A stretch of DNA of 64,000 nucleotides, from the NCBI GenBank assembly GCA_000004985.1, contig GG738875.1; one strand, 5' to 3'. Positions 2,217 to 62,356 of the stretch are shown piece after piece; the first letter of the stretch is position 1; each line of letters opens with the position of its first letter. Both the position numbers and the translations under genes were made by a program. This DNA comes from Naegleria gruberi. Lineage: Eukaryota. The notes under the pieces were generated by a model that saw only the letters and a list, made by a program, of their open reading frames with translations, was not told where the DNA came from and did no database searches.

Positions 2217-4192
2217 ATGGCAGATATTGTTCTTCCAGATACTCACTATGATGCCATCATTGTCGGAACTGGTATCGAAGAGAGTTTAATTGCTGCATCG
2301 TTGAGTAGAGCTGGAAAACGAGTACTTCACTTGGATTTAAACGATAGTTATGGTGGTCATTTTAGTACAGTGAATCCATCTGAATTAAACGAATATGTTC
2401 ATGTAAAATCTTTTGATTCTGATGTTCCGGAACCTTTTTATCAAAATCCATTCTCTCAAATTAATTTTAAAATTATTGATGATTTAAATATTTCTCTTCA
2501 AAGAAAGACAATGATTGACTTGTGTGGATTGCATGTTTTATATTGTAGAGGACCTATGGTAGAATTATTAATTCAATCTGGTATTGCTAGATATTTAGAA
2601 TTTAGATGTTTGGATTCTGTTTTAATGTTTGACAAGGAGCATTCCACTAACCCATTTAAAAATGTTGTAAAATCTGAAGATGAATTTTCACTTGTGGATG
2701 TTTCTCAATTGTTTCAAGCAGTTCCAACAACAAAGGGTGAAGTTTTTAAAACCAAGTTTATTTCTCTCAAGGAAAAGAATAGACTTGTAAAGTTTATTAA
2801 CTTTTGTGTCAATCTATCCACTCAGGAAGAAGAAATGAAAACCTATAAGGAATTTGAAAATGAATCATTTGATTTATTTTTGAGCAAGACACAACTGTTG
2901 GGAGACGAACAAAGCTTTGAAAAATTGAGAGATATTGTTGTTCATGCTTTGGCTTTATTAGATTCTCCAATTGGAATAACCACTAAACAAGTTATGAGTA
3001 GAGTACAATATTTCATTTCAAGTTTAGGTAGATTTGGAAATGGAGGAGCTTTCCTTTATCCATTATATGGACAAAGTGAGCTTGTACAAGCATTTTGTAG
3101 AGTTGGTGCCGTTTATGGTGGTGTATATGTTTTGAGAAGAGGAATTCATAGTGTAAAACTTGTTGAAAATGCTCACTATCAAGCTGAGCCTGTAAATATC
3201 GATCAAAATGAAGAGAAAAACTCAGACCCAACAGATGAAACTACCGATAGACCAGTAATTTATTCTAAAGAAAAGGTTGTGATTGAAGTTGGAAGTGGAG
3301 TTCAAACATTTACTTGTGATCATTTGGTAATGAACAGAGATTCTTGTCCAAGTGATACCAGTAGCACAGATGACGATTTACTTTTGAAGTTTGTTGTAGT
3401 TACTGAATCTCCATTGTTCAATTCAATTGCCAACACTATTGCAGTTATTCCTAGTGGTACAATTTCAATTGTTGCCTCTGATGAAACAATCGTAAAACAA
3501 CCATGTGCTATTTATTTGAATCAATTAGATTACTCAAGTTGTGTCGTTCCTAGAGGAAAGTACATGATCTCCCTTCAAACAAGAATTCCTTCAGACATTA
3601 GAAAATCCAATTCAGAGGTAGAAAGTCTTGTAATCAAAATGTTACAAACATGTGTAGACAGATTTATCAAGAACATTGAAAATGAGGAAAATATTGTATT
3701 CTCAACTTTATATAAGCAATCAATTCGTAAGGGAAGTTTTTCATTCTCTCAAGAATTGGACAGTAAGATTCATTTCTGCAATGATGCTAATCATGATGTC
3801 ATGCAATTAGAAAGTGGAATGACAGAACATGTTAAGGCTATCTTTAAGGCTATTGCAGGTGAAGATGTTGAATTCCTCGCAAAGATTCCTGATCCAAACA
3901 AGAGCGATAGAGACGAAGAAGATGAGCTCTACGATGAAACCACTAAATTGTTGGGAATTGAAAAGTCCAAAGTTGTGCAACCTCCCAACACAACAGCACA
4001 ACAATGGAGGAGCAAAATTTGGGAGGCGATAACCAACAACAAGATGAAATCAAAGATAACAATAACCCAGCAACACCTGCTGCTGATCATGAAAATGTTG
4101 CTGTTTCTGCTTCTGATGAAAATAATAATATTGAGCAAGAACAACCTCAACAACAAGACGACTCTGAAGGTACCAAAACAACAGAAAAATAA
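2217..4192 (+). CDS. Rab escort protein (Rab geranylgeranyltransferase component A, REP/CHM family) with acidic N/Q/D/E-rich C-terminal tail; frame change near 3962-4006 unresolved
   Basis: N-terminus MADIVLPDTHYDAIIVGTGIEESLIAASLSRAGKRVLHLDLNDSYGG matches the REP/GDI FAD-fold start (human REP1 [45 protein letters not shown]). The ~580-aa core has REP-type insertions, longer than GDI. Conserved frame 0 runs 2217..~3964. A low-complexity acidic tail is in frame +2 (3962..4192, stop TAA 4190-4192). Frame 0 read-through beyond 4004 gives implausible hydrophobic junk and would fuse with the next gene. Junction is either a 32-nt GT-AG intron (3965..3996) or a frameshift. Confidence 0.7.
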
Positions 4193-4238
4193 AGGAGTTT
4201 TTTCCCGCCAATTTGCCATCCAATTACGATACAAAAAA

Positions 4239-6509
4239 ATGCGAAGATCATCATCAGGGTCAAATATTGCTTCCTCATCTTATCGATCGAATACATCAAA
4301 CTCTGATAGTGATGAGGATTTAAAAAAACCAAATAACAAATTGATGAGAAATTCTATTATTCAAAGTGTAATATCTGAGGCGAGAAGTATAGTAGAGACA
4401 GAGGAAATTCTTAGGCCCTCAATAGCAAGGCCATCACGACCATATACACCTCGGGATTGTGAGAGAAGATTATTTATTGAAAATGAATACACTTCGCGGC
4501 CCACCTCAGCTGTATCAATCTCCAGCACTTTTGATTTTTCTCACCGAAATATTGGTTCATCAAGTGGTACGCGGGATGAAACAAACCCAGAAATTACCCG
4601 AGTGGGTTCTGGTAGCAGAAAGAAGGTAAGTAAACTTTATTAAGATTTATTGGATAAATGGTTGTAATAGAAACCTTCATCATCAAGCTCCAAAAGAACA
4701 GGAAGTAGTAAAAGTAGTAGAAGTGATTTGGAAAAAGAGGAAACACATATTCATGAGCAAGGAACAAGTGACAAAGTGTGGAATTCAATAGAAACAATTC
4801 TTGGCTCTTTGGAACAATGCGAAGACGAAGATGCTCTTATGGACTCCTTGGACTCGATATTATTGCTGGTTGATAAACTTAAAACAGTCCACAATCCAGT
4901 TGAAGATGAAAAGAAGATTAATTTCATTGGAAGACTGTCAAAATACATAGACATAGAAAACGGGCCTCGAGCTGTTAAATGTTGTTCTATAATTTTAAGA
5001 GTTACCACCTTTGGTTACCAGATACTACATATTTGTAAAATACTATTCAAGATTAGCAAACAAGAAAAAAATGACAAAGTATTTAAGGATGACAGTATTA
5101 TTGCACCCTTGGTTAGATTGTTAAATCAAGAATTTTCAACCGATAATTATTCCGTTTCTTGGGAGATTTTACTGTTTACAATTGGTACATTGAAAAACAT
5201 TTCATATGATAATTTCAATCAAAAACTGCTGATCAAACACAACACCATTTCACTCCTTTCTTTACTCCTTTCGTCAGCACTTAGAGAGCTGAAAACTGGA
5301 AATATGGAAAAGGTAAACAAACAAGCTCAGCTTTTAGTTCAGATTATGGCCACATTGAGAAACTTGGCCATGAAGACTGGAACTTTTAAACAATTTTTTG
5401 AGTATAATGTGATTGATAATATTCATATTTTGATGAATGCCCTAATGTCTCACTCAGAGTTTATACATAACTCTACTAGAGTTTTAAGCAAACTTTCTTT
5501 AGATGAAACGTGTACAGAAGAAATGAGAAAGATCTCAACCTTAAAATCATGTTTAATTAATGTTATGAAAGAGCACAAGAAACACAAACCAATAGTTGTG
5601 CGAGTTACCTTTATTCTAGGAAACATTACATTCCAGGATTACTCAGACCAAGAACTCTTTGATGAAAAAACAGAAATTCCTTTCTTGTTAGACCTTTTAG
5701 ATCTTTACTCAATCGAAGATGAAAGAAATACTAGTGCAGAAAATGTAAAGAAGGAAACTGAGGATTTATTGACAAAATTAATAAGGTTGATTGCAAATAT
5801 TTCGATGGATGAGCACCAAGGAAGAATAGTCGCTCAAAGTAAACAAGTAACTAGGTTGATTGAAATAATAGAAAGAAAGAAAGTTCAAGATTCTGAAGAG
5901 CTTATTTTGAATACACTAAGATGCATTACCAATCTTTCGTTTTATGCTTTTAGTGACACAGCAAGTCCTTTATATACATTCAGAGTTAAGCTTGCTTCCC
6001 TTCTTTCTCCACTTCTCTTCCATGATTTGACAGATGTTGTCTACGAAGCTACAAGAACATTCGGTAATCTTTCTCAAGACTCAAGTGTTCGGGAATACAT
6101 TACCAAATCTAGAATTGATGAAGCTTTAATAATAATGGTTGAACATGGCAATACGGATATTGTATATGCTGTTTGTGGAGTACTTGTTAATATGACTTCA
6201 GACCCAAGGGGTATTAAAGCAATCCAGGAGCATGGTGTAATTGAAAAATTACTAGACGTACTGGAGAAGTGTAATGTTTCACTAGCTTTAGTAATTTTGA
6301 AGATTATCCATAACATTTGTCTTAACAATGAGGCTTTTGGAGAAAATTCAAAAATTTACTCTGACTATGATTTGGAACATTTAGATATGTTACTAAATGA
6401 TATTCTCAACCATGAATATGATCACGAAGAAATGAACGAGCAAGAAGTATCCATGTTGAGAGATTTGTCAAGTGTTGCTCAAGAATTACAATATATTCTT
6501 TCTAAATAA
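4239..6509 (+). CDS. Armadillo (ARM)-repeat protein with Ser/Arg-rich N-terminal region; join(4239..4625,4671..6509), 45-nt intron 4626..4670
   Basis: ATG at 4239 preceded by an A-rich leader, 46 bp after the REP stop. GTAAGT donor at 4626 and TAG acceptor ending 4670; the 45-nt intron is AT-rich and has in-frame stops. Exon 2 is the ORF 4728..6509, whose listed M is TTG. Repeated ARM-like helices (…IAPLVRLLNQEF…, …LLSLLLSSALREL…, …RVLSKLSLDE…). No specific orthologue recognised. Confidence 0.6.
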
Positions 6510-6522
6510 ATTAATTCATATA

Positions 6523-7491
6523 TTATTGATTCTTATCAGTTGTAATTTGAAGCGGATCCTTCTCAATTTCAATATTTATATCCTTAAAATCACAATTACT
6601 CTTTCTAAAAATCTCTGTTACTTGTTTTAATATTTCCTTTTCACTACTTTGTACATTGATTAATATCTTTAAACTTCCTACATTTGAGTTTGATTTCAAA
6701 ACCCAAAAGTGTGGATTACTAACATTAATAACTCCATCAATATCCAGTATTTCTTTAATGCATTCATTAATAGAATATTCGTATTGAATAGGTGTTCTTT
6801 GAAGTAAAACTCTACTAGAATTAGAAATTAAAGGGAAGCTAGTATAAAGAATCATAATTGAAATAATTAAAGAACAAATTGGATCAGCAATATACCATCC
6901 AAAATATTGTACAATTAATGTTGATACAATAACACCAATACTTCCCAGAGCATCAGCAATCATGTGAAGATAGACACCATAAATATTTTCATCATGTTGA
7001 TGGTGATGATGAGAACATGAATCACCTTCATCGGAATGATGTTGATCATGGAAATAAATTACACCATACATATTTACACCAAATCCTAGTATCGAAACTA
7101 ATAACAATTGTTGAGTATGAACAATAGGCGGATCAATTAGCCTATGAATTGATTCAATTAAAATATAAATCGAAATAAACACAAGTAAAATTCCATTAAT
7201 AAATCCAGATAAATATTCATATCTAACATATCCATAGGAATATATGTGATTTGACTTCCATTTTGACATTATTGATCCATATAAACCAATAATTAAAGCA
7301 GCACAATCAAAAAACATGTGTGCAGAATCGGAAATTAATCCCAACGAATTATTATATATTCCAAAAGCCAACTCTACAAACATAAACAATAAATTAACAA
7401 GAATAAAATAAAATAAATATCTAGTGTCCTTATTCGCATAGATATGTGTATTAAACATATCGGAGAGAAAATTAGGTGATGATGATTTCAT
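6523..7491 (-). CDS. Cation diffusion facilitator (ZnT/SLC30-like) zinc transporter
   Basis: 322-aa ORF with six predicted TM helices. CDF signature region SDSAHMFFDCAALIIGLYGS. His-rich cytosolic loop (HHSDEGDSCSHHHHQHDE). HMIADALGSIGVIVS…YIADPICSLIIS motif typical of SLC30. Single exon. Confidence 0.85.
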   Translation of the reverse strand: MKSSSPNFLSDMFNTHIYANKDTRYLFYFILVNLLFMFVELAFGIYNNSLGLISDSAHMFFDCAALIIGLYGSIMSKWKSNHIYSYGYVRYEYLSGFINGILLVFISIYILIESIHRLIDPPIVHTQQLLLVSILGFGVNMYGVIYFHDQHHSDEGDSCSHHHHQHDENIYGVYLHMIADALGSIGVIVSTLIVQYFGWYIADPICSLIISIMILYTSFPLISNSSRVLLQRTPIQYEYSINECIKEILDIDGVINVSNPHFWVLKSNSNVGSLKILINVQSSEKEILKQVTEIFRKSNCDFKDINIEIEKDPLQITTDKNQ

Positions 7492-7705
7492 TTTTTTCTT
7501 ATGGTCATGTCATCTTATGAAATTATCATCATCTTTAATCAATAATAATTCATTCACAATACTATTAGCAACAACAACAACTTGATAAGAGAACTCTCTC
7601 AATTGCCCTCTCTTTTGCGAGACAAATTTAAAAAACTTACGGTTACATTCAAGTTTTAAAAAAAAGAGAAAACACAACTATTGAGGGCAAAGATTTTTCA
7701 AACAA

Positions 7706-10700
7706 ATGTCGTTGTTTGATTCATCATTTAGAGCCACATCGATGGTAGTCTCCCCTCATCGGTATGGTTTATTTAATAAGAGAAATGATGAGGATGAGGA
7801 TAGTGTTTTTGGAGAACGTATTGAGGTTGATTATGATACAGATAGTGCCTCATCCGAAGAAGAGAGTTATGGAAGTGGACCAAGAAGTTTCATCAGTACA
7901 AAAAGCTCAAACGGAGAGTCATTGATACTCAATGATGGTGATTCCAGTGCCTTGGATTTAACCTCTAGCTTGGACTTGGAGAGGAAGAGTCCTGCTTCTC
8001 CTCTATTTAAATCCATCCTCAATACATCACCTCAACATTATAATCCAAAGAATGATCCGAGTACCACCTCTTTAGGTTTACCAGCACATATAATTGTTTC
8101 TAAGAATTCAAGTGAGGATGATATTAAAACAACAACGAAAACAATTGAGGATGAAGATTACGCATGTTTTCGTTTACTAGGATTGTACAAACATCAGGTC
8201 ACCCCACATGATTTGCTGCTGAAATTATTCGATATTTTTGGAAGTACAGATTATACTGACAATACTATTGAAGCTAAGAAGAAATTAACTTTCAGGTCTG
8301 CAGCTATTGCAGTTACAATGTCTGCAATGCTCAAATCAAAACAACCACAACCAGAATCTGGCTCTGAACACAGACATCACTCAAAACATGCAGCAGCAAT
8401 TAGTAATATTCACAAGAAAATTAGAGAATCTATTAATGGAAAAACAGGGGATGACAAGGGTTCACCACAATATTTGGAAAAGGTCAGGAAAAGAATTGGC
8501 TATGTTCCTAAGAAGCATATGAAAATGATGATGAAGCAAGAGCAAGAGAAAAAGGAGGTGAAAAAGGATAATAATATTGAGGACGAAACATTTAATAAGT
8601 ACAAAATTTTGCAAAACCAACATCAAAAACAAAAGAACAAGTACAGTAATGTTAAAAAGAGAATCAAATACTTGAAATTTAAGAATATTATGTTGGAATC
8701 CACTATTTATATGAAAGATAAGAATAATTCTTTAGAGTCCGTACTTGGTTACTCAACTAAGGTTATTTACGAGAATCCATTTATTGATTTCAATACATGC
8801 CTAAACCATATAACTACACTGGCAAAGATTAGATTTCCTGAAATGGAGAAAAATTCTTTAGAAATGTGCTCAACCAGTCTTCTTTATCCTTATGTTTTAA
8901 ATATGATGAAAAGAGCTCTGAAATTAGTGAATAATTTCTCAAAATGGATAACAGACGATCCCAACGTTTCATCTTTATTCCATTATTATAGACCTCCCCT
9001 TCTAAGGATTTTTAACTTATTTATCAAAATGGATAATGAAGAAAAACAAACTGAAGCTGTGGATATTTTTAAGACAAACAACACTATGAATATTGATGCA
9101 TTCCTCAATTTTTGCACTGTATTTTCAATTACACCAAATATGATTCCTGAACAAGTGGCAAAAAAGATATTCCACAATATTCTGAAAGAGAAACACAGCT
9201 CGTTTCTTTCTAAAAAATCATCCAATCAGATTAGAACGGTGGTAATTGGAGATTTTCTTGAAATTTTGGCTAGGCTGGCTAGTAACTTTTCGTATCAATT
9301 TGAGGATCTATTGAAACAATGTCAATATTTATTGGACCATTTAGAGGAGAATTATTATTTGTTGTTTGGCGAGTACATGTCAAAGGAAAGGAAAAGAAGC
9401 TATCTCACTAAGAATCAACCTGAAAACAATCTCAATATAACAAAATCTAGCTTTGATGAAGCCACCATCCTCAGAAAGAAATCCGTATCTGTGAACAGCT
9501 CAGTAGATTTCTATCAAACAACTACAGCCCATGTAGAAGAAAAGAAAATACCCTCTATACTAAGAACTGTAAATACACAAAGGAGTGTAAAAAAGCCTCC
9601 AAAGAGGGATTTTATCAAAACCGAACAAGACTTGGTTGACTATATTGGTGAGGATAGATTCAGAATGATGGATAGTAGCAGAACTCTGCACAAGGTTTTT
9701 GCTCTGTATTGTAAGGATAAGCAAGGCAATTGGTCTTGTAAAGACTTTCTTAACTTTCTGGAAGATTATGCAATCGATAAGAGAATTAAGAAATTTCAAC
9801 AATTTCTAAATCTAAGATATGAAGACGAAGAACTGTTCGACGATTTGGGTCTTCCAGTAGTCGATGAAAGATATCTTACCGCTCAGTTTAAATCGAAATC
9901 ATTTGACAGCTCTCTTTCAAGAGTTAAGCTGTACGCTCTTTTCCATGATGTTTATGAAGAGAAGGTTAAGTCACTCTCTTCAAAAGATACATTTTCTTTA
10001 TTCCTTGATAGAGTATTTAGTAAGAGTAATTATCTCAAAGCTGTAGAAAAAGTTAGAGAACGAAATTTACAAAAGATGAAGGATCCTTCTTCAATCCTCG
10101 AGACATCTAATCCCAACACCTCTGTTTCTTCTTTAAATTTAAGCTCGATTTCACTAAATATGAGCTCTAGCTTAATATCCATAGAGCGTGTTCGACCTTC
10201 GACATCAACAAGCATTTCAGCGCAAGAGAGTCGCCAATTCTTCACAACCAGAGTTTTCAGACAATTCAACTTGTTGAAGGGATGTAAAATTGTAGCATAT
10301 GTGGAAAACAGAAAGGGTTGTGTAATGAAATCAGATAATGGTATTTTGCCAACCTCATTTGATTTGAATATGGTAATCAAAGACAAATTTGTGGAGCGAG
10401 AGTTGCTTTCTCATCTAACAGTTTGTGAAACATTTAATCAACTTGTAGATAGATTACTCATGATTGGATACGATATACAAAGTAAGTGTGGAGATCACTG
10501 CATTCAAGGAAGTATTAAGTGTTTGAGATTTTGTAAGAGAAAGACACTCGACCCTGTTGGATGTATTTTTGAAATGAAAGGTCAATTCTCATCCCTTCTC
10601 TATCAACCCACTCTCGGTGATTTAATTAGAACTGATTGTGGTCTGACATTGTATGACTTAGACCCTTCCAACATTTTATTTAACAATCTTTTGAAACTTT

Positions 10701-10783
10701 ACAAGGAAAGCATTTGTATTGATGAATTAACTCATGCAATACGTGATTTAGGTTTTGACATTGTCAATGTTAAATTTTGTTGA
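7706..10783 (+). CDS. Large hypothetical protein (1025 aa), no domain recognised with confidence
   Basis: Uninterrupted 3078-nt ORF with ATG at 7706. Codon composition matches neighbouring genes. N-terminal acidic/Ser-rich region, basic K-rich middle, structured C-terminus. Function unknown. Confidence 0.55.
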   Translation: MSLFDSSFRATSMVVSPHRYGLFNKRNDEDEDSVFGERIEVDYDTDSASSEEESYGSGPRSFISTKSSNGESLILNDGDSSALDLTSSLDLERKSPASPLFKSILNTSPQHYNPKNDPSTTSLGLPAHIIVSKNSSEDDIKTTTKTIEDEDYACFRLLGLYKHQVTPHDLLLKLFDIFGSTDYTDNTIEAKKKLTFRSAAIAVTMSAMLKSKQPQPESGSEHRHHSKHAAAISNIHKKIRESINGKTGDDKGSPQYLEKVRKRIGYVPKKHMKMMMKQEQEKKEVKKDNNIEDETFNKYKILQNQHQKQKNKYSNVKKRIKYLKFKNIMLESTIYMKDKNNSLESVLGYSTKVIYENPFIDFNTCLNHITTLAKIRFPEMEKNSLEMCSTSLLYPYVLNMMKRALKLVNNFSKWITDDPNVSSLFHYYRPPLLRIFNLFIKMDNEEKQTEAVDIFKTNNTMNIDAFLNFCTVFSITPNMIPEQVAKKIFHNILKEKHSSFLSKKSSNQIRTVVIGDFLEILARLASNFSYQFEDLLKQCQYLLDHLEENYYLLFGEYMSKERKRSYLTKNQPENNLNITKSSFDEATILRKKSVSVNSSVDFYQTTTAHVEEKKIPSILRTVNTQRSVKKPPKRDFIKTEQDLVDYIGEDRFRMMDSSRTLHKVFALYCKDKQGNWSCKDFLNFLEDYAIDKRIKKFQQFLNLRYEDEELFDDLGLPVVDERYLTAQFKSKSFDSSLSRVKLYALFHDVYEEKVKSLSSKDTFSLFLDRVFSKSNYLKAVEKVRERNLQKMKDPSSILETSNPNTSVSSLNLSSISLNMSSSLISIERVRPSTSTSISAQESRQFFTTRVFRQFNLLKGCKIVAYVENRKGCVMKSDNGILPTSFDLNMVIKDKFVERELLSHLTVCETFNQLVDRLLMIGYDIQSKCGDHCIQGSIKCLRFCKRKTLDPVGCIFEMKGQFSSLLYQPTLGDLIRTDCGLTLYDLDPSNILFNNLLKLYKESICIDELTHAIRDLGFDIVNVKFC

Positions 10784-19937: not shown

Positions 19938-19948
19938 ATTTTGGCGCC
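19938..19948. promoter_or_regulatory. E2F-like TTTTGGCGCC motif (inverted overlapping half-sites) 35 bp upstream of the importin-alpha-like ATG
   Basis: caTTTTGGCGCCATTTTtt. The core GGCGCC is palindromic and flanked by T-runs on both strands. Motif match only. Confidence 0.25.
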
Positions 19949-19982: not shown

Positions 19983-21386
19983 ATGCAAGACAATAATTTA
20001 TTGTTTTCTGGTAATAATTCTAGCAGAAAACATGCTTCTATTAAATCACAGAGTGAAATATCCTATTCACAGAGGAAAAATAATCGGATTGACTTGCAAA
20101 AACAAGCACATAAACAAAAGAGAAATCAATTATTGGAGCAATTAAAAAGAAGAAAGGTTTCCGACACTGTAAATGATGATGCCACCCAAGGAAGTGATTA
20201 TGTATATAATATTGGAGTATTTTGCAATGTTTTACTTTCACAAGAGTCTTCAATTCCTCAAAAAATCAATGCAATGAAACAATCGAGAATTATCTTGTCA
20301 AAATGTGATCCCGATACTTTGACAAATATTTTGGAAAAGAATGATCAATTTATTAATCTATTACATCAATATTTAACTTGTAAATATTCCGAGTTGCAGT
20401 TGGAATCTGCATGGTGCATTACAAATATAGCTGCTATGAAGGATGAAAGTGTTTCATTTTGCATTCCTACTCTGATACAATTGATTTCAAATTCATTCTT
20501 GGATGTGGTATTACAAGAACAGTGTATATGGGCTCTTGGAAATATTTCTCTGGGATTTTATAATAATACTCCTCTATCGACTGTTATTATACAGAATGGT
20601 GCTATTCAATATCTGTCTAATACTATCAGAACATGTAGAGCCAAAGAAATTCTCAAAACAACTTTATGGTGCGTATCGAATATTATTAGAAACGAGATTT
20701 TACATATGAAACACAATACACCAGAACATAATCAGCAAATATTTGGATGTCTTGGTCAACTGTATGAACCAATAATTTACCAATTACTGAAAAGAAATTT
20801 GAGTGATGATGGAAACATTTCAGATTTGTTATATGTGTTAAGCTATTTAACTGCTTATCCTCTCACTGACATGAGCAACTCTACAAATTTTGTTCAAATA
20901 TTTATCAAATATTTAACCCCACAAAAACAAGAATTTATAACACCAATTATACGGATTATTGGAAATATATTTTGCTCTTACAACTTATTTTCAGCATTGG
21001 ATCAGAACTTATCTTTAGAATTAATGAACTTGTTGTCTAACATTCCAGATAAAAACAAGGAATGGTGCTACATGATGGGAAATATATCTTCGTATGAGGA
21101 AATCAATGAGATTCTCATTCAACAATATCACCTTCTTAATATTGTAATAGATACTCTCAAAATAGCCATCAATTCTGATATTTCGAACAATAGCGAATTG
21201 GTGCGTGAGACTGTCTATACTATAATCAACCTGACAACAGCTAATCATAACAAATACCTAACTAAGGAAATATTGGAACTGATTCAACGAGTAGCTCAAA
21301 CCTATACATTTGACGAGAATGAAAATAATCAACAATTCAAAATGGTTCTTACACAATTCTTCGACTATGCTTCCAGATTACAATAA
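19983..21386 (+). CDS. Divergent importin-alpha (karyopherin-alpha)-like ARM-repeat protein with IBB-like N-terminal motif
   Basis: Basic IBB-like segment (QRKNNRIDLQKQAHKQKRNQLLEQLKRRKV). ARM repeats with the importin-alpha hallmark W-x-x-x-N motifs (ESAWCITNIAA…, CIWALGNISLG…, LWCVSNIIRNE). 467 aa, shorter than canonical importin-alpha. Confidence 0.55.
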   Translation: MQDNNLLFSGNNSSRKHASIKSQSEISYSQRKNNRIDLQKQAHKQKRNQLLEQLKRRKVSDTVNDDATQGSDYVYNIGVFCNVLLSQESSIPQKINAMKQSRIILSKCDPDTLTNILEKNDQFINLLHQYLTCKYSELQLESAWCITNIAAMKDESVSFCIPTLIQLISNSFLDVVLQEQCIWALGNISLGFYNNTPLSTVIIQNGAIQYLSNTIRTCRAKEILKTTLWCVSNIIRNEILHMKHNTPEHNQQIFGCLGQLYEPIIYQLLKRNLSDDGNISDLLYVLSYLTAYPLTDMSNSTNFVQIFIKYLTPQKQEFITPIIRIIGNIFCSYNLFSALDQNLSLELMNLLSNIPDKNKEWCYMMGNISSYEEINEILIQQYHLLNIVIDTLKIAINSDISNNSELVRETVYTIINLTTANHNKYLTKEILELIQRVAQTYTFDENENNQQFKMVLTQFFDYASRLQ

Positions 21387-21405
21387 AAAAAATGCAAACA
21401 TAAAT

Positions 21406-23304
21406 ATGGAGCAACATATTTTAATTGATGGGAAAATTAATTATGAATTGGATGAGTTGTGTTCTAACCTTGCTCTTCATCATGAACAATATAAAGAAGG
21501 AATAACAAAAATTAAGAGATGGGAGGAAGCCAAGTTTTTAAAGGATCAAGACTTTCAAGTACCAGAAAAACCTTCACTTGATGAATTAGAAAAGGAGGAA
21601 TTACGATTTGAATGTGAGAGTGATGTCCTCCCGAATTATGCTATACCATCTTCATCTTCTAGAAGAGATTTAGAAATAATTTTAAATCAAATTCTTTCGA
21701 TTATTAGATCGGATCATGAATTTAAAAAGTGGATTATTGAACAGGCACTCTCCTTCATTTCTAAAAATTTTAAATCATTATTAATTGATAATTTCCTTGA
21801 AGTAATTCAGAATTTATTTGAATTACATGTGAAAAAAACAAAACCAAATCAAGATGATGTATTTATTGAAACTAGAGTCCAAGAGAGTATTTGGAAAACA
21901 ATTTTATTTGATATGAAAGAGAATCACGCGGAGGATGGGATACTGATTGACATGTCTTTAACATTTTTATATTTGAGAACTAAAGAATATGAAAAGGCTG
22001 AAACATGTCTATTGAATATCATAATAGCATTAGAAAAATTAGAGTCTAAACTAATTCTAAATTATTTTTATTTATTATTAGGACATGTTTTGAGGATAAA
22101 CTTCAAGCTAGATTCGTGTGCTTGTTATTTTAGAAAATTAGTGAATAGTCTGCCTTTCGATAAAACAAATAATACAATACTTTATTCTGCCATTTATATG
22201 TGGTTAGGCGAGGTAATGGAATCAATGGATTTGGATGTGTGGGCTGTAGAATCATATCTTAAATGTAGCAAATATTTTTCTGATCATCCAAATATGAACC
22301 ATCCCTTTGTAACGATTTCATTTGTTTTTATCAAGTTGGCAGAGCTTTTCTTTAAGGATTATAAGGAGAATGGAAATAATATACATCTTGCAAAAATTTT
22401 CTATCACAAAGCCTTTATTGGATTTGAGAAGAATAACCTACTTCAAAATAAGACATTTATAGAACTGTCTCCATATACAATCAATTATAACAAAGCGAGT
22501 ATAGCAATACGTTTGGGTTGTATTATTTATTTGGAAAAAGATTTTGAAAAGAGTTTAGACTTTTTCCTAAAAGCTGAGGAATGCCTGCTTAAAATCAGAT
22601 TTGAGTAAGTTATTGAAATTTAACTCGATACTAATTTTGGATCTAGTCAATCTCAAAGAAAAAGTGATGGATCAGCTCTAAATATTTTACAATCTCTACA
22701 TAGAAAAATAGCAATCAATTATTGTAGATTGGGCCTTTTTCAAAATGCCTCACGATATGTCATGTATAGAATTATTGTGGATAATAGTAAGATTTCAGAC
22801 ACAACAGACTACCAGAAGCAATTAAATCTCATACTGGAAGAAAAAGAAAGAGAGAAACAGGAACGAAAAACTCATGCCAAACATGTGATAGCTCAGGAAC
22901 ATCCAATATGTTTCCTATCTCTTTCTCTTATATCATTTCACAAAAAGTCTATTATAGAATTATGTAAATACTGTGAACTAATTTTCAAAACAAGTGAACT
23001 CGACAAGGAAGTTTATCTCCCACTCCTTACCTTCCAAAAACTTGTTTCCTTATTAATCTCTTCACAGCAATTAGAACTAGCCCAAATAATCTGTTCCAAA
23101 TATCTCATCTCTGCCAAATCATACGCACTCGGATATTACATTCTCTTTCTACTTTCCATTAAAAACCAAGACAACAATTCAATCATTGGATGTTGGAAGA
23201 AGTTTAATGAAACCTATGTAAGCAACAAGCCATTTGAACCAATGAGTGTCTACTGGCCATTCATCTTGTCCTCAACTTTAAGATTTCCACTGCCAAAACT
23301 GTAA
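21406..23304 (+). CDS. TPR-like helical-repeat hypothetical protein; join(21406..22604,22647..23304), 42-nt intron
   Basis: First in-frame ATG at 21406, 19 bp after the upstream stop; the ORF track start 21310 overlaps the previous gene. GTAAGT donor at 22605 and CTAG acceptor ending 22646. Exon 2 corresponds to ORF 22729..23304, whose listed M is TTG; the frame is continuous after splicing. Confidence 0.5.
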
Positions 23305-46454: not shown

Positions 46455-46465
46455 TTTGGCGCGCA
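46455..46465. promoter_or_regulatory. E2F-like TTTTGGCGCGC motif 63 bp upstream of the outer-arm dynein heavy chain ATG
   Basis: Sequence ctgTTTTGGCGCGCaatt matches the E2F consensus TTTSSCGC. Similar copies lie upstream of the second dynein gene (62348..62356) and the importin-alpha-like gene (19938..19948). Motif match only, no functional evidence. Confidence 0.25.
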
Positions 46466-48623: not shown

Positions 48624-49858
48624 TTACCAGATCACACCCTTTCCAAAAATTACAATAAGGCCAACAACAAGAACAGTGAGCAATATTAAACCAAGAATGA
48701 TCCACATCATTTTTGATCCTGTTTTACGGAGCTTGTTACTCTCTGTTGATCATTCCAATAAAAAATTAAACTTGAACGCAAAAATAAACTTACCTTTGAG
48801 ACTTTCCACACCTCTTTCCACATTGTCCTTTGATGTAATGACATTGGTGTGAATAGTGTCCAACATTGGATCTTGTTCATCTACAAGACTAGAAAAAGAA
48901 TGGAACAAGTGATTCAATTCATGATATTCACTTTGATAAGTTTTCAAATCTTCATACTCTTCCAATGCAATTTTCATTTCTACATTCAAAGTGCTATCTT
49001 GCCAAGAAACAAGAGCATTTTCTTGTAATTCTTGATCAACAGTAGTTTGCTTTTGTTGAGTAGTGTGCAATAATGGTTGATCTTCAGATTGAATTTCTTC
49101 TTCCTCATCAAAGTGATCCATTGGTGTTTGGTGATGGGCAGCAAATTGTTCTTGTTTTTGTTTAGTTTGTTGAGCAATCCATTCCTTATCACGTCTAATA
49201 ACATCCTTAAGAACAGTGATAGTTTTAGTAAGATCATTCTTTACACGATTATATTTAACCATGGTTTCATGTTGAGTATTCATTGAGGATGAATTAGTTT
49301 CAGTGGAAGAACTCAATCCAGATTCCATTAATAATCTGCTTTCATTACCAATCTTTGACCCAATTCTATTGGAAATCTTTTTCAAATCATTAACTTCTGA
49401 TGTGCACCATTGACGAATTGATCTATTAAATTATTTCAATCATTAATATTCATCATTATTTCAATTAGAATATTGAAAAATTCCATATTTCCTTACCTAA
49501 TCTTTTTAGTAATATCATTTCCACCAACACGAAGAGAAACATCACCATGATTAAAAGATGAGTCCGATCCTGAATTATTGTATGAAGAAATGGCCACTTG
49601 TTGTGCTCTCTGATTCGACAATTGTTTGTATTGTTCCACTTGTTTAGACAAGTTAGTAACTCTCAGAACAAACTCCTCAACCGAGTCATTATTTGAACGT
49701 TGGAAGGAGTTGAAGTTTTCATTTTCCTTGCTATTGTTTGTTCCAAGGTTATTGCTGCCTGTTGTGGTGGCGTTTCTTTTTTGTTGATTCAAAGTTTTGG
49801 CGCGTTGATTTGTACTTGCTCCAACACTAGGAACATTTCCCCACGATAAAGAAGACAT
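48624..49858 (-). CDS. Syntaxin-type Q-SNARE with C-terminal TM anchor; complement(join(48624..48742,48794..49422,49497..49858))
   Basis: SNARE motif …YHELNHLFHSFSSLVDEQDPMLDTIHTNVITSKDNVERGVESLK with central Q. 74-nt GTAAGG…TAATAG intron and 51-nt GTAAGT…CAACAG intron. The last 119-nt exon encodes …KMMWIILGLILLTVLVVGLIVIFGKGVIW (TM anchor), stop TAA at 48624..48626. ORF-track pieces 48750..49385 and 49493..49858 are exons 2 and 1. Confidence 0.8.
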
Positions 49859-52059: not shown

Positions 52060-52318
52060 TTTTTTTGCGAGTTTGACGCCTATATTATTTACAATGGCTA
52101 AATAGTTGACTCACAGACGCATTAGGTTAAAACTCCTGTTGGAAAGAAAGAAATAACATGAGAAGAAATATTAAATTCTACTTTTTTATATATTTGATTG
52201 GTTTTTAAAGATTAAGTATTATATAATAAAGAATATTAAATCTCCGTAATATGTTTTTCATCTAGAAAACATTTACTTCTTCTTCTTCTTTTTCTTAGCT
52301 TCTTCTTCGCTGCTTGAA

Positions 52319-53791
52319 TCAGAATCCGATGAAAGATGATGAGGATGAAGAACTTTCATCATCAGATGATTCTTCCTTTCTCTTTCTCTTCTTTTCTTCT
52401 TCTTCTTCAGCTTCAACCTTCTTTGGCTTCAAGTCAATCTTCTTGCTCTTTGTTTCAGCAACAGTTTCAATCTTCTTGCTTCCACTCTTTGGCTTGAGTT
52501 GATCCATAGCTTCTTGTCTTTCACTCTTCTTTCCGAGAGCAGCGTTAATTTCTGGCTTTTGTAAGAAGAACCACTTATTAGCAGAAACATCACGATAATT
52601 GTTCAACCAGACTTCAGGTGTAGATTCAGTTGGTTGACCATACTTATCCAATTTACCTTGTTCAATGAGTTCCTTCTTGAGCTTGGAAACTGGACCCATA
52701 CCCCAACGTCTTGGATAGGTATTACGATCCATAATAACTCTCTTAGTCTTACAAACAACACCATAATCCATAGATTGAATTTGAATTGAGGTCATGACAG
52801 CATAAGCAGTAGCAATAGCTTCACCCTTTGTGGTAATCAAAACAATTTCTTCACCAGTTTCAATAGAATCATCATAACGTAAAACACCAGGAATCATCAA
52901 TTGAGCACCGAAACAAATTGAGTTAACAGCACTATCCTTAACAATAACACGCTTATAGTTGGTCAACAAAATTTCCAATGGTTTAACAATACGTCTCAAA
53001 TAAGATTCATCACCCTTGGCCTTCAATTCATGTTGAGCATCCAAAACATCATGCATAGTGTAGAGGAAATCCTTTTCACTCAAAGAACCAGATTGAACTC
53101 TTCTCAATTCAAACATAGAACCACCAGTACCCAATAATAAACCTAAATGTTCACACAAGGTTCTGACGTAGGTTCCGGCTTGACATTTAACCCAGAAAAC
53201 AGCCATTTGACTCTTAGCATCAAATTCGAAAAGTTTAACATCATAAATAGATCTAATACGCAATTGTCTCTTAACAGCAGAAATTTCTGGTGGCATTTGG
53301 AAAACAGCACCAGTCAATGTAGTCAATGCTTCTTCAACAGCCTTATATCCTCCTTGAACTTCTCCGTTTAATTTCAAGATAGAAACGTATTGTTTACCAG
53401 CACCTTGTTGGGATTTAACCAAACGAGTTGCACGATTCAAACAAACAATCAAACAACCAGTAACTTTAGGATCCAAAGTACCAGAATGGCCAGTCTTTTC
53501 AACATCGAGAATTTTCTTAACCCAAGCAACAATTTCGTGGGAAGATGGATTAGCTGGTTTGTCCAAATTGATAACACCATATTTAAGATATTCTTCTAAT
53601 TTTCTTTTTGTTGGTGTGTTACCAGCTGGAATTGGAGTGTAATGTCCAGTTCTAGCGTTCAATTTATCGAAATTTTTCAACAAGAGTGGGAATTCGCTAG
53701 AATCAGTCTTGCTAACATCCAAATTTGTTGGGAGAGTTTTAGATGATGTTTCTTCAGTTGTTGAAGATGATTTTTTATCTTTTTTGCCCAT
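52319..53791 (-). CDS. DKC1: Dyskerin/Cbf5 H/ACA snoRNP pseudouridine synthase (TruB family, PUA domain, Lys-rich C-terminal tail)
   Basis: Near-collinear match to dyskerin: [21 protein letters not shown]…[69 protein letters not shown]…; catalytic Asp in GTLDP. K/E-rich tail. Single exon. Confidence 0.95.
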
Positions 53792-55209: not shown

Positions 55210-56490
55210 ATGTTTATCAATCAAATTAATCACAATGAAAATAACATTCTAAAAAAACCATCATCACAATTAATGATAATTCTAGGAATTGCATTATTAT
55301 TTTGTTTAATTGCTACCAATAAATTAGTGTCGGATAAGAATGACTTGCCAAGAATATTGAGATCCTATAATAATCCACAGTATGATGCAATTATTGATGG
55401 ACCAATCGGAGGAGATGATGAACAGGTTGGAGCTTGTTCATTTCGTTTTTTAATATTTTCATCAGTGGATTCCGAATCTATTGGATTGGGTAATACATTG
55501 CAAAGCATTTGGAAATTAAAGAGTAAATTATTTGTGCCATGTGTGGCTGTTATCATGTCATCGAAAGATTCAGAAAAATCAATTGAAAAGAGATTGGATA
55601 TTATTAATTCATCAGATTTTAAAAAGCATCCAAGTATGATAACAGCTATTGGCATTGGACATAACAATAGAAAGAGAGGATCAACAATTGTTGATGAATT
55701 GGGAAATTATTTGAAATCGATACGAGACGACAAGAAATTTATGATTGTTAATGAGGGAAATACTTTTTGTGAAAGGGCAGAATATCATATTATGAATGTT
55801 TTAGATGAGGCAAGGAGAAGAAAGATGGATTCCGAATCAATGAATCATCTTGCTTATAAGGTTTCTATGGGAAAATTGAATGGTTTTATTATAACGAGAT
55901 ATATTTTATCAAAATGGGTTGAAACTTCATCAATCAAGAGTTCTGTATTGCTTGACATTTTAGAAAAGAAAAAGGTATTAACCTATCGATTCCAAATCAT
56001 GCAATCTGTTCAAGAAGACCAACCAAAATGTTTTGAAACATTAGTTGAAAGGGATTCTTCGTTTTCATTTAATTTGGATCAATGTTCAGATTCATTATTT
56101 AGTCCCTGTAACAATGAGAAGAAATCGGTAGAATTTTCACATGATGTTGTGAAGGAAACTGTATTCCCATCATCCTCCAAATATTCAATTTCTGATTTTG
56201 AAAGAGTAGAATCAATCAAATGTTTGAAAGGAGAAGATTGTAACACTTGTTGCGAAAAGAAAGCAATGAAATGCACTCAAGAATTCTTCCCTTTCATCAA
56301 TAGATGTGACGAGTTGCAATATCATGATAATTCTTGTGAGTGTGAACGTGAATCTGAGTCAACTTCAATTTCACCATTTTACAAAGGATCAAAATGTGTT
56401 ATTGCACTTAGAAAAAGCAAGTTTACCTGTGAATCAAAGCCAACAACATCTAGTTTCATTTCTAGGCTTTGTCCATGTTTAAAAGAATAA
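55210..56490 (+). CDS. Hypothetical type II membrane protein with Cys-rich C-terminal region
   Basis: ATG at 55210. N-terminal signal-anchor (LMIILGIALLFCLIATN). Luminal domain. About 20 Cys in the last 130 aa, with CxxC and CxC pairs. No family recognised. Confidence 0.5.
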   Translation: MFINQINHNENNILKKPSSQLMIILGIALLFCLIATNKLVSDKNDLPRILRSYNNPQYDAIIDGPIGGDDEQVGACSFRFLIFSSVDSESIGLGNTLQSIWKLKSKLFVPCVAVIMSSKDSEKSIEKRLDIINSSDFKKHPSMITAIGIGHNNRKRGSTIVDELGNYLKSIRDDKKFMIVNEGNTFCERAEYHIMNVLDEARRRKMDSESMNHLAYKVSMGKLNGFIITRYILSKWVETSSIKSSVLLDILEKKKVLTYRFQIMQSVQEDQPKCFETLVERDSSFSFNLDQCSDSLFSPCNNEKKSVEFSHDVVKETVFPSSSKYSISDFERVESIKCLKGEDCNTCCEKKAMKCTQEFFPFINRCDELQYHDNSCECERESESTSISPFYKGSKCVIALRKSKFTCESKPTTSSFISRLCPCLKE

Positions 56491-56617
56491 TTTTGGGCAT
56501 TACACATTAGTCAATGGCAACTAATAGATATCCGAGTTTATATGTAATATTTCCAATTAAAGTTTCAACATAACTAGAAACCGTTCACTGAAACTTTGAA
56601 TTAAGCAAAAAACAAAT

Positions 56618-62347: not shown

Positions 62348-62356
62348 TTTGGCGCC
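62348..62356. promoter_or_regulatory. E2F-like TTTGGCGCC motif in the 50-bp spacer between the SEL1L-like stop and the second dynein ATG
   Basis: atatTTGGCGCCtttttt, 40 bp upstream of ATG 62396. Motif match only. Confidence 0.25.

Follow-up and report, generated by a model that had tools for sequence, protein, structure and literature searches.

The Rab escort protein (REP) gene of Naegleria gruberi changes coding frame shortly before its 3′ end. We infer that a single-base indel in a single-exon gene is very probably the cause of this break. A 32-nt GT...AG element at the site, which the earlier note had raised as a candidate intron, is most likely ordinary coding sequence. The finding is an ordinary one, of use chiefly for annotation.

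The REP gene and its change of frame

We analyzed a 64,000-nt stretch of N. gruberi DNA (the window), a compact, AT-rich eukaryotic region with a GC content of 33.6%. The gene that begins at ATG 2217 matches PF00996 (Pfam GDI) with E=1e-39, and its best named matches are REP / RabGGTase component A proteins. By sequence similarity it is a clear orthologue of REP (Mrs6/CHM; GDI superfamily), REP rather than GDI, in agreement with its first identification as a Rab escort protein. Further along, the neighboring ORF at 7706-10780 corresponds to XP_002675848.1 / EFC43104.1 (NAEGRDRAFT_68839) with 100% identity over 1,025 aa. The features of the REP locus are as follows, with frame 0 defined as the frame whose codons start at positions divisible by three.

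2217..3974, plus strand: coding part of REP that is read in frame 0 and extends from Met to ...YDETTKLLGIEKSKV; the last stretch where homology fixes the frame
3959..3961, plus strand: TGA closing frame 2 upstream in the three-frame translation; 5′ limit for any frame switch
3975..4027, plus strand: frame-switch zone, with one base missing or two extra, most likely before the Trp codon at 4005
4004..4192, plus strand: acidic, polar REP C-terminal tail in frame 2, including the TAA stop at 4190-4192
4193..4238, plus strand: intergenic spacer that separates REP from the ARMC2-like gene; contains an E2F-like box (TTTCCCGCC) at 4201-4209
4239..6509, plus strand: armadillo gene, ARMC2-like; its 45-nt intron at 4626-4670 is canonical and starts with GTAAGT

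Frame 0 is open for 808 codons, from the ATG at 2217 to 4643; it crosses the next gene's start codon, ATG 4239, and enters that gene's intron at 4626-4670. Frame 2 opens at 3962, contains an ATG at 4004 and ends at the TAA at 4190-4192. Its text in the three-frame translation reads MEEQNLGGDNQQQDE...TKTTEK (full form MEEQNLGGDNQQQDEIKDNNNPATPAADHENVAVSASDENNNIEQEQPQQQDDSEGTKTTEK). We scored both frames with codon-usage log-odds, for which the 17 long ORFs of the window served as the training set. In frame 0 the score per 12 codons is +6 to +10 bits until about 3960, and past about 3990 it lies below zero. In frame 2 it is -20 to -32 bits before 3950 and +5 to +11 bits from 3996 to about 4160. 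Between about 3960 and 4000, frame 2 thus takes over the coding signal from frame 0. Because the log-odds move from one frame to the other, the change of coding frame is genuine in the sequence as given, and the discontinuity first noticed by eye is confirmed by both the three-frame translation and the codon scores.

The position of the switch is less sharply defined. Both frames are open together from 3962 to 4027 and beyond, and all switch points from 3959 to about 4027 have much the same likelihood (54-59 bits), which drops after that. With a likelihood this flat over about 50 nt, the exact base of an indel cannot be named.

Past the switch, the two frames encode very different proteins. 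The frame-2 tail has a net charge of -13, with S, T, N, Q, D and E making up 66% of its residues, and in composition it resembles six heterolobosean REP tails. Past 4004, the frame-0 text has a net charge of +16, is 42% hydrophobic and is unlike any orthologue tail. The earlier note took the acidic tail for the real C-terminus and called the frame-0 text implausible; charge, composition and codon score agree with it on both points. A stop-free frame 0 is also expected here. When the codons of the tail are shuffled, it stays open past 4004 in 49% of cases, and shuffling the intergenic spacer leaves it open in 37%, so its openness is at chance level; 61% of the tail codons carry A at position 2. 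The statement that frame 0 would fuse REP to the next gene therefore holds in that the frame does run open into that gene, but the openness itself is what chance provides (49% and 37%).

The next gene encodes an ARMC2-like protein with 67% identity to N. lovaniensis C9374_005755 and 99% identity to a metagenome protein (P0126). Its ATG at 4239 lies 46 nt beyond the frame-2 stop. Two loci from relatives, a metagenome relative (L001) and an N. fowleri-like contig (L002), are syntenic with the window: a REP stop is followed by a spacer of about 70-90 nt and then by the ARMC2-like gene, which starts MRSRSSSG... in L001 and is split in L002. Placing the REP stop at 4190-4192 recreates this layout of stop, short spacer and ARMC2-like ATG. 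REP and the ARMC2-like gene are two distinct genes; we rejected a REP-ARMC2 fusion because codon score, composition and synteny speak against it and because frame 0 is open only at chance level.

REP in relatives and independent sequence at the site

The closest REPs to the window's gene come from an ENA metagenome contig (P0001, 54% identity), a Logan contig (P0002, 53%) and Willaertia magna (P0003, 40%), followed in similarity by Acrasis kona and others. P0002 clusters at 90% with the annotated N. fowleri REP (XP_044560196.1 / KAF0975483.1; P0121), and the two have identical C-termini. The relatives share the motif ...(A/E)LYDETT(K/R)LLGI(D/E/T)K, and the 28-74 residues directly after it form an acidic, polar and variable tail. 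In all seven heterolobosean REPs compared, N. fowleri included, the motif ...YDETTKLLGI(D/E)K runs into the tail without a break. For three of them we read the DNA itself and found core and tail in one ORF (L001, 487-2556; L002, 455-3052; and the W. magna locus L003, 5001-7007). The other four, all heterolobosean-like, were compared as proteins, with the tail coming straight after LLGI(D/E)x. The N. gruberi protein has the same kind of variable acidic tail after the same motif; unlike the other heterolobosean REPs compared, it alone has the tail in another frame. A comparison of REP C-termini among relatives, which the earlier note had recommended, thus gives an uninterrupted passage from motif to tail and counts against an intron.

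The relatives also tell how far frame 0 can be trusted. In the protein alignment, frame 0 of the window reads LLGIEKSKV opposite LLGIDKSKI in N. fowleri. At the DNA level, ATTGAAAAGTCCAAAGTT in the window aligns with ATTGATAAATCCAAAATA in N. fowleri, so that the codons TCC AAA GTT are colinear with TCC AAA ATA, each after a conserved Lys codon. Since KSKV matches KSKI, frame 0 is the true frame through at least 3974, a position inside the 32-nt element. The same homology moves the 5′ limit of the switch to 3974, past the GT donors at 3950 and 3965.

We looked for independent N. gruberi sequence covering the break. The only independent N. gruberi-like contig, from a second strain (L004, found with L005 in metagenome run ERR1078381, PRJEB11402), matches window positions 4339-7536 at 99.66% identity, with 11 mismatches and 0 gaps over 3,198 nt. 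It begins about 330 nt short of the switch site. Over the 3,198 nt where the two can be compared, the assembly is accurate for indels. Because the reference is otherwise accurate in this respect, a genuine indel allele is a serious alternative to a base-calling error. JGI metagenome contigs scanned with peptide patterns and an exact 24-mer gave no match. Among 1.84 billion representative proteins there was no near-identical REP and nothing closer than P0001. In a contig collection that lacks the N. gruberi genome, the 62-aa frame-2 protein, the 808-aa frame-0 protein and the neighboring ORF yielded no exact contigs.

An exact protein look-up, for which XP_002675848.1 served as a positive control and was found, did not contain the 647-aa spliced model, three corrected 658-aa models or the 741-aa ARMC2-like model. 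The protein database therefore holds the neighboring gene, and we saw in it no N. gruberi model for either REP or the ARMC2-like gene. The missing models suggest a locus that was mis-modeled, or left unmodeled, through the frame break.

The 32-nt element and other readings of the frame break

If the genome sequence is correct, something other than a plain ORF would have to carry the reading into frame 2. We examined the short element proposed as an intron, the introns of the window and a predicted hairpin.

3965..3996, plus strand: 32-nt GT...AG element; donor GTCCAA, GC 0.50; overlaps the conserved KSKV codons
4626, 13145, 17007, 24109, 27794, 30531, 60344, 62723, 62864, 63411 and 63628, plus strand: introns recognized from split ORFs
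49496 and 58171, minus strand: introns recognized from split ORFs
3948..4038, plus strand: predicted RNA/DNA hairpin over the switch zone; CCUCC at 3981-3985 pairs with GGAGG at 4006-4010

The element has GT at 3965-3966 and AG at 3995-3996, and its excision joins the two frames exactly, as had been claimed. It is also open in frames 0 and 2, with a codon score that is not negative. About 13 introns could be recognized in the window from split ORFs, and all have a GTA[AT]G donor (GTAAGT or GTATGT). The ten that we measured are 42-78 nt long, have a GC content of 0.14-0.30 and contain stop codons; lengths of 42-49 nt are common. Neither the C at +3 or +4 nor the A at +5 of the donor GTCCAA occurs in any of the approximately 13 local introns, and both the length of 32 nt and the GC content of 0.50 fall outside the range of the ten measured. 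The element is thus as unlike the local introns in donor, length and GC content as was first remarked.

The informative value of its borders can be judged from how easily such borders arise. Between 3950 and 4135 there are nine frame-joining GT..AG pairs without a stop. We then simulated 1,500 single-base deletions at randomly chosen sites within intact long ORFs from the window. A frame-restoring GT..AG pair of 18-60 nt was available in 89% of these deletions, with a mean of 4.3 pairs. Because so many simulated 1-nt deletions offer such a pair, the GT-AG borders are uninformative, and we conclude that 3965-3996 is most likely ordinary coding sequence and not an intron. The candidate intron of the earlier note has against it the uninterrupted orthologues, the loss of KSKV and the misfit with local introns.

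Similar cases are known from Entamoeba histolytica: the assembly lacks single bases, and predicted introns of length 3n+2 make up for the loss; the example in a figure of that study is a 32-bp intron that stems from the deletion of a G (Roy and Penny 2007, Nucleic Acids Res 35:4737, PMC1950532). In Naegleria assemblies, frame-shifting mismatches between RNA-seq and genome have been described (bioRxiv 10.64898/2026.08.18.745565), in a study that curated its models with the N. gruberi mitosis time course of Kennard et al. 2025. As in the Entamoeba pseudo-introns, the frame of REP is shifted within a coding region, a short GT-AG segment that has a 3n+2 length, looks like coding sequence and lacks an in-frame stop can be posited to restore it, and one added base makes the ORF colinear with its homologues. 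Unlike those cases, the missing base in the Naegleria REP is inferred from sequence and could be a real allele.

A very short, atypical spliceosomal GT-AG intron, either 3965-3996 or another frame-joining pair (we considered 3972-4009, 3975-4009 and 3972-4012), nonetheless deserves to be weighed. Like N. gruberi introns, of which 42-49 nt examples are common in the window, the element is small and has GT...AG termini; its length is 3n+2, and its removal gives a clean ORF to the TAA at 4190-4192. We consider it unlikely. The donors GTCCAA, GTTGTG and GTGCAA share only GT with the local GTA[AT]G, and the candidates, at 32-41 nt, are shorter than any of the ten measured introns and have a GC content of 0.50 against 0.14-0.30. 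They lack a TAAT-like branch motif and an A/T-rich 3′ end. No relative has an intron here, judging from three single ORFs in DNA and four protein tails, and the 32-nt version deletes KSKV codons that are colinear with N. fowleri. Unlike N. gruberi introns, the element starts with GTCCAA, is 32 nt long with 50% GC, is open in two frames and is coding in relatives, and pairs of this kind arise in 89% of simulated indels. Two other intron types were rejected. For a U12-type intron, inspection by eye found no ATATCC/GTATCC donor and no TCCTTAAC branch site. For a euglenid-type, structure-defined non-conventional intron, the hairpin is unexceptional, and the segment bounded by its paired ends, 3965 and 4022, is 58 nt long, a 3n+1 length that would not join the frames.

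Programmed -1 ribosomal frameshifting, another option in the earlier note, would leave the mRNA collinear with the genome and have tRNA-Lys slip on A_AAG (3961-3965) or nearby, stimulated by the hairpin (taken as 3965-4022). Known -1 frameshift sites, such as those of retroviral gag-pol and E. coli dnaX, combine a slippery heptamer with a downstream stem-loop or pseudoknot, expected at a distance of 5-9 nt. The REP site resembles them in the direction of the shift, in an A_AAG exactly where frame 2 opens and in an overlapping, moderately stable hairpin (3948-4038; MFE -26.8 kcal/mol, z = -3.4 vs shuffles). However, frame 0 contains no X_XXY_YYZ heptamer between 3930 and 4030, only the A_AAG at 3961. 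The hairpin has no spacer, and when every 121-nt window across the 64 kb is ranked it reaches only the 5th-7th percentile; we regard this prediction as probably incidental. Rfam matches over 3000-5000 were sub-threshold noise, with nothing at gathering level, and a known structured RNA was rejected on that basis. With a slip at 3961-3965, the conserved KSKV would be lost, and the tail stands in the zero frame in the three orthologues read as DNA. Unlike known sites, the REP site lacks a slippery heptamer, a spacer, a structure that clearly stands out and conservation in orthologues. It also has no zero-frame stop to define a short product, so that unless every round shifted, translation would yield a product without a stop before 4641. 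Such frameshifting is highly improbable. So is translation of frame 0 as written, in which the ORF from ATG 4004 would be a separate small gene or unexpressed and REP would be fused to junk or to the ARMC2-like protein. Frame 0 is indeed open from 2217 to 4643 with the next gene's ATG in the same frame, and neither an N. gruberi REP nor an ARMC2-like model appears among the protein-database matches. Against this stand the negative codon score after about 3990, a basic and hydrophobic text unlike any orthologue tail, an openness at chance level (49% times 37%), and the stop and spacer that split the two genes in the N. fowleri-like L002 and in L001.

Taken together, a correct genome in which a non-standard event makes the REP tail, whether a GC-rich intron of 32-41 nt with a non-consensus donor or a -1 frameshift at A_AAG beside the hairpin, is improbable. 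The event would have to be recent, since N. fowleri and Willaertia do without it. Were the genome correct, a heterolobosean housekeeping gene would carry a rare recoding event or a minimal non-consensus intron, and the evidence is against this.

A probable single-base indel in a single-exon gene

The 1-nt indel, listed as one alternative in the earlier note, is the best-supported reading, given the uninterrupted orthologues and the open, overlapping frames. REP would then be a single-exon gene whose last 60-75 codons are out of register in this sequence. The low-complexity start of the tail, between about 3975 and 4010, would lack one base or, less likely, contain two extra. The real mRNA would most likely encode a REP of about 658 aa, running from ATG 2217 through ...LLGIEKSKV... 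and ...MEEQNLGGDNQQQDE...TKTTEK to the TAA at 4190-4192. The 32-nt GT...AG segment would be coding sequence that has a length of 3n+2 by chance and so hides the indel.

Adding one base to any of 17 short homopolymer runs gives a single 658-aa ORF with an orthologue-like tail, and an insertion at any point from about 3975 to 4010 has this effect. Skirting the frame-2 Cys codon (3974) and the frame-0 Trp codon (4005) weakly favors an indel at 3977-4005, and possible corrected products read ...KSKVVQPPQHNSTTMEEQ... or ...NTTAQQMEEQ....

Given an indel, we estimate its origin as a little better than even for an error in base calling or assembly and a little less than even for a genuine indel allele of strain NEG-M. 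The longest runs in the switch zone are AAA and CCC, and because no long homopolymer is present, a classic homopolymer miscall is not obvious. A genuine indel would leave REP without an in-frame stop before 4641. The REP gene is essential in yeast, which makes a genuine indel hard to reconcile unless other alleles are intact.

For annotation, the N. gruberi REP is best entered as one exon of about 658 aa ending at 4192, with no 32-nt intron and no ARMC2-like fusion. The locus also illustrates a general trap, in that almost any single-base indel in the N. gruberi genome can be "repaired" by a GT-AG pair.

Other apparent frame breaks in the window have ordinary explanations. The one at 21383 reflects two adjacent genes about 20 nt apart, and those at 56463-56600 and 14309-14208 are ordinary gene boundaries. 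In the tail of dyskerin, which has a TTT run at 52332-52334, we noticed a second possible 1-nt frame break in the same window, a point in favor of the indel reading of REP.

Public reads and the annotation of REP

Two metagenome contigs (ENA ERZ929261 / Logan ERR1078381, PRJEB11402) correspond to positions 4339-7536 of the window. Across these 3,198 nt the metagenome sequence is 99.66% identical to ours, with 11 mismatches and 0 gaps; public reads therefore include a second N. gruberi strain. Such reads could serve to check the frame break in the Rab escort protein (REP) gene, as well as other doubtful sites.

For the region 2217-6509, no N. gruberi model of REP was found in a database of 5.8 billion proteins, nor was one found there for the downstream armadillo (ARMC2-like) gene. 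The same database includes the product of a neighbouring gene, XP_002675848.1, together with N. fowleri and N. lovaniensis orthologues. In the public N. gruberi annotation, the models for REP and the ARMC2-like gene may be missing or wrong.

A candidate frame break in dyskerin/CBF5

53863-52322, minus strand: dyskerin/CBF5 ORF (Pfam DKCLD, TruB and PUA)
52273-52336, minus strand: candidate second frame break in the C-terminal tail, where leaving out one T of a TTT run would extend the serine-codon periodicity

As given, the dyskerin/CBF5 ORF terminates at TGA 52321-52319. Removing one T from the run at 52332-52334 carries the serine-codon periodicity on to a new stop, TAA 52275-52273, and gives the product a Lys-rich C-terminal tail. 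Tails of this kind are typical of dyskerin. This low-complexity tail may thus hold another 1-nt frame break, in addition to that of REP, in the 64 kb of the window.

E2F-like boxes and gene spacing

E2F-like box TTTSSCGCS, copies in the window:
4201-4209
19940-19948
46455-46463
49796-49804
62348-62356

The expected number is 0.23, against these five copies, and in 100 shuffles the count always stayed below five. The copy at 4201 precedes the ARMC2-like start codon by approximately 30 nt. In the syntenic REP/ARMC2-like spacer, a metagenome contig (L001) contains TTTGGCGCC, and an N. fowleri-like contig (L002) shows no more than a partial CCCGC core. The box could be a promoter element.

Another possible frame break, at 21384-21407 between two convergently scored plus-strand ORFs, was rejected because these are two separate genes. 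The gene for an importin-alpha-like ARM protein stops at TAA 21384, and the following plus-strand gene has its ATG at approximately 21407; the gap of only about 20 nt indicates that the genes here are tightly packed.
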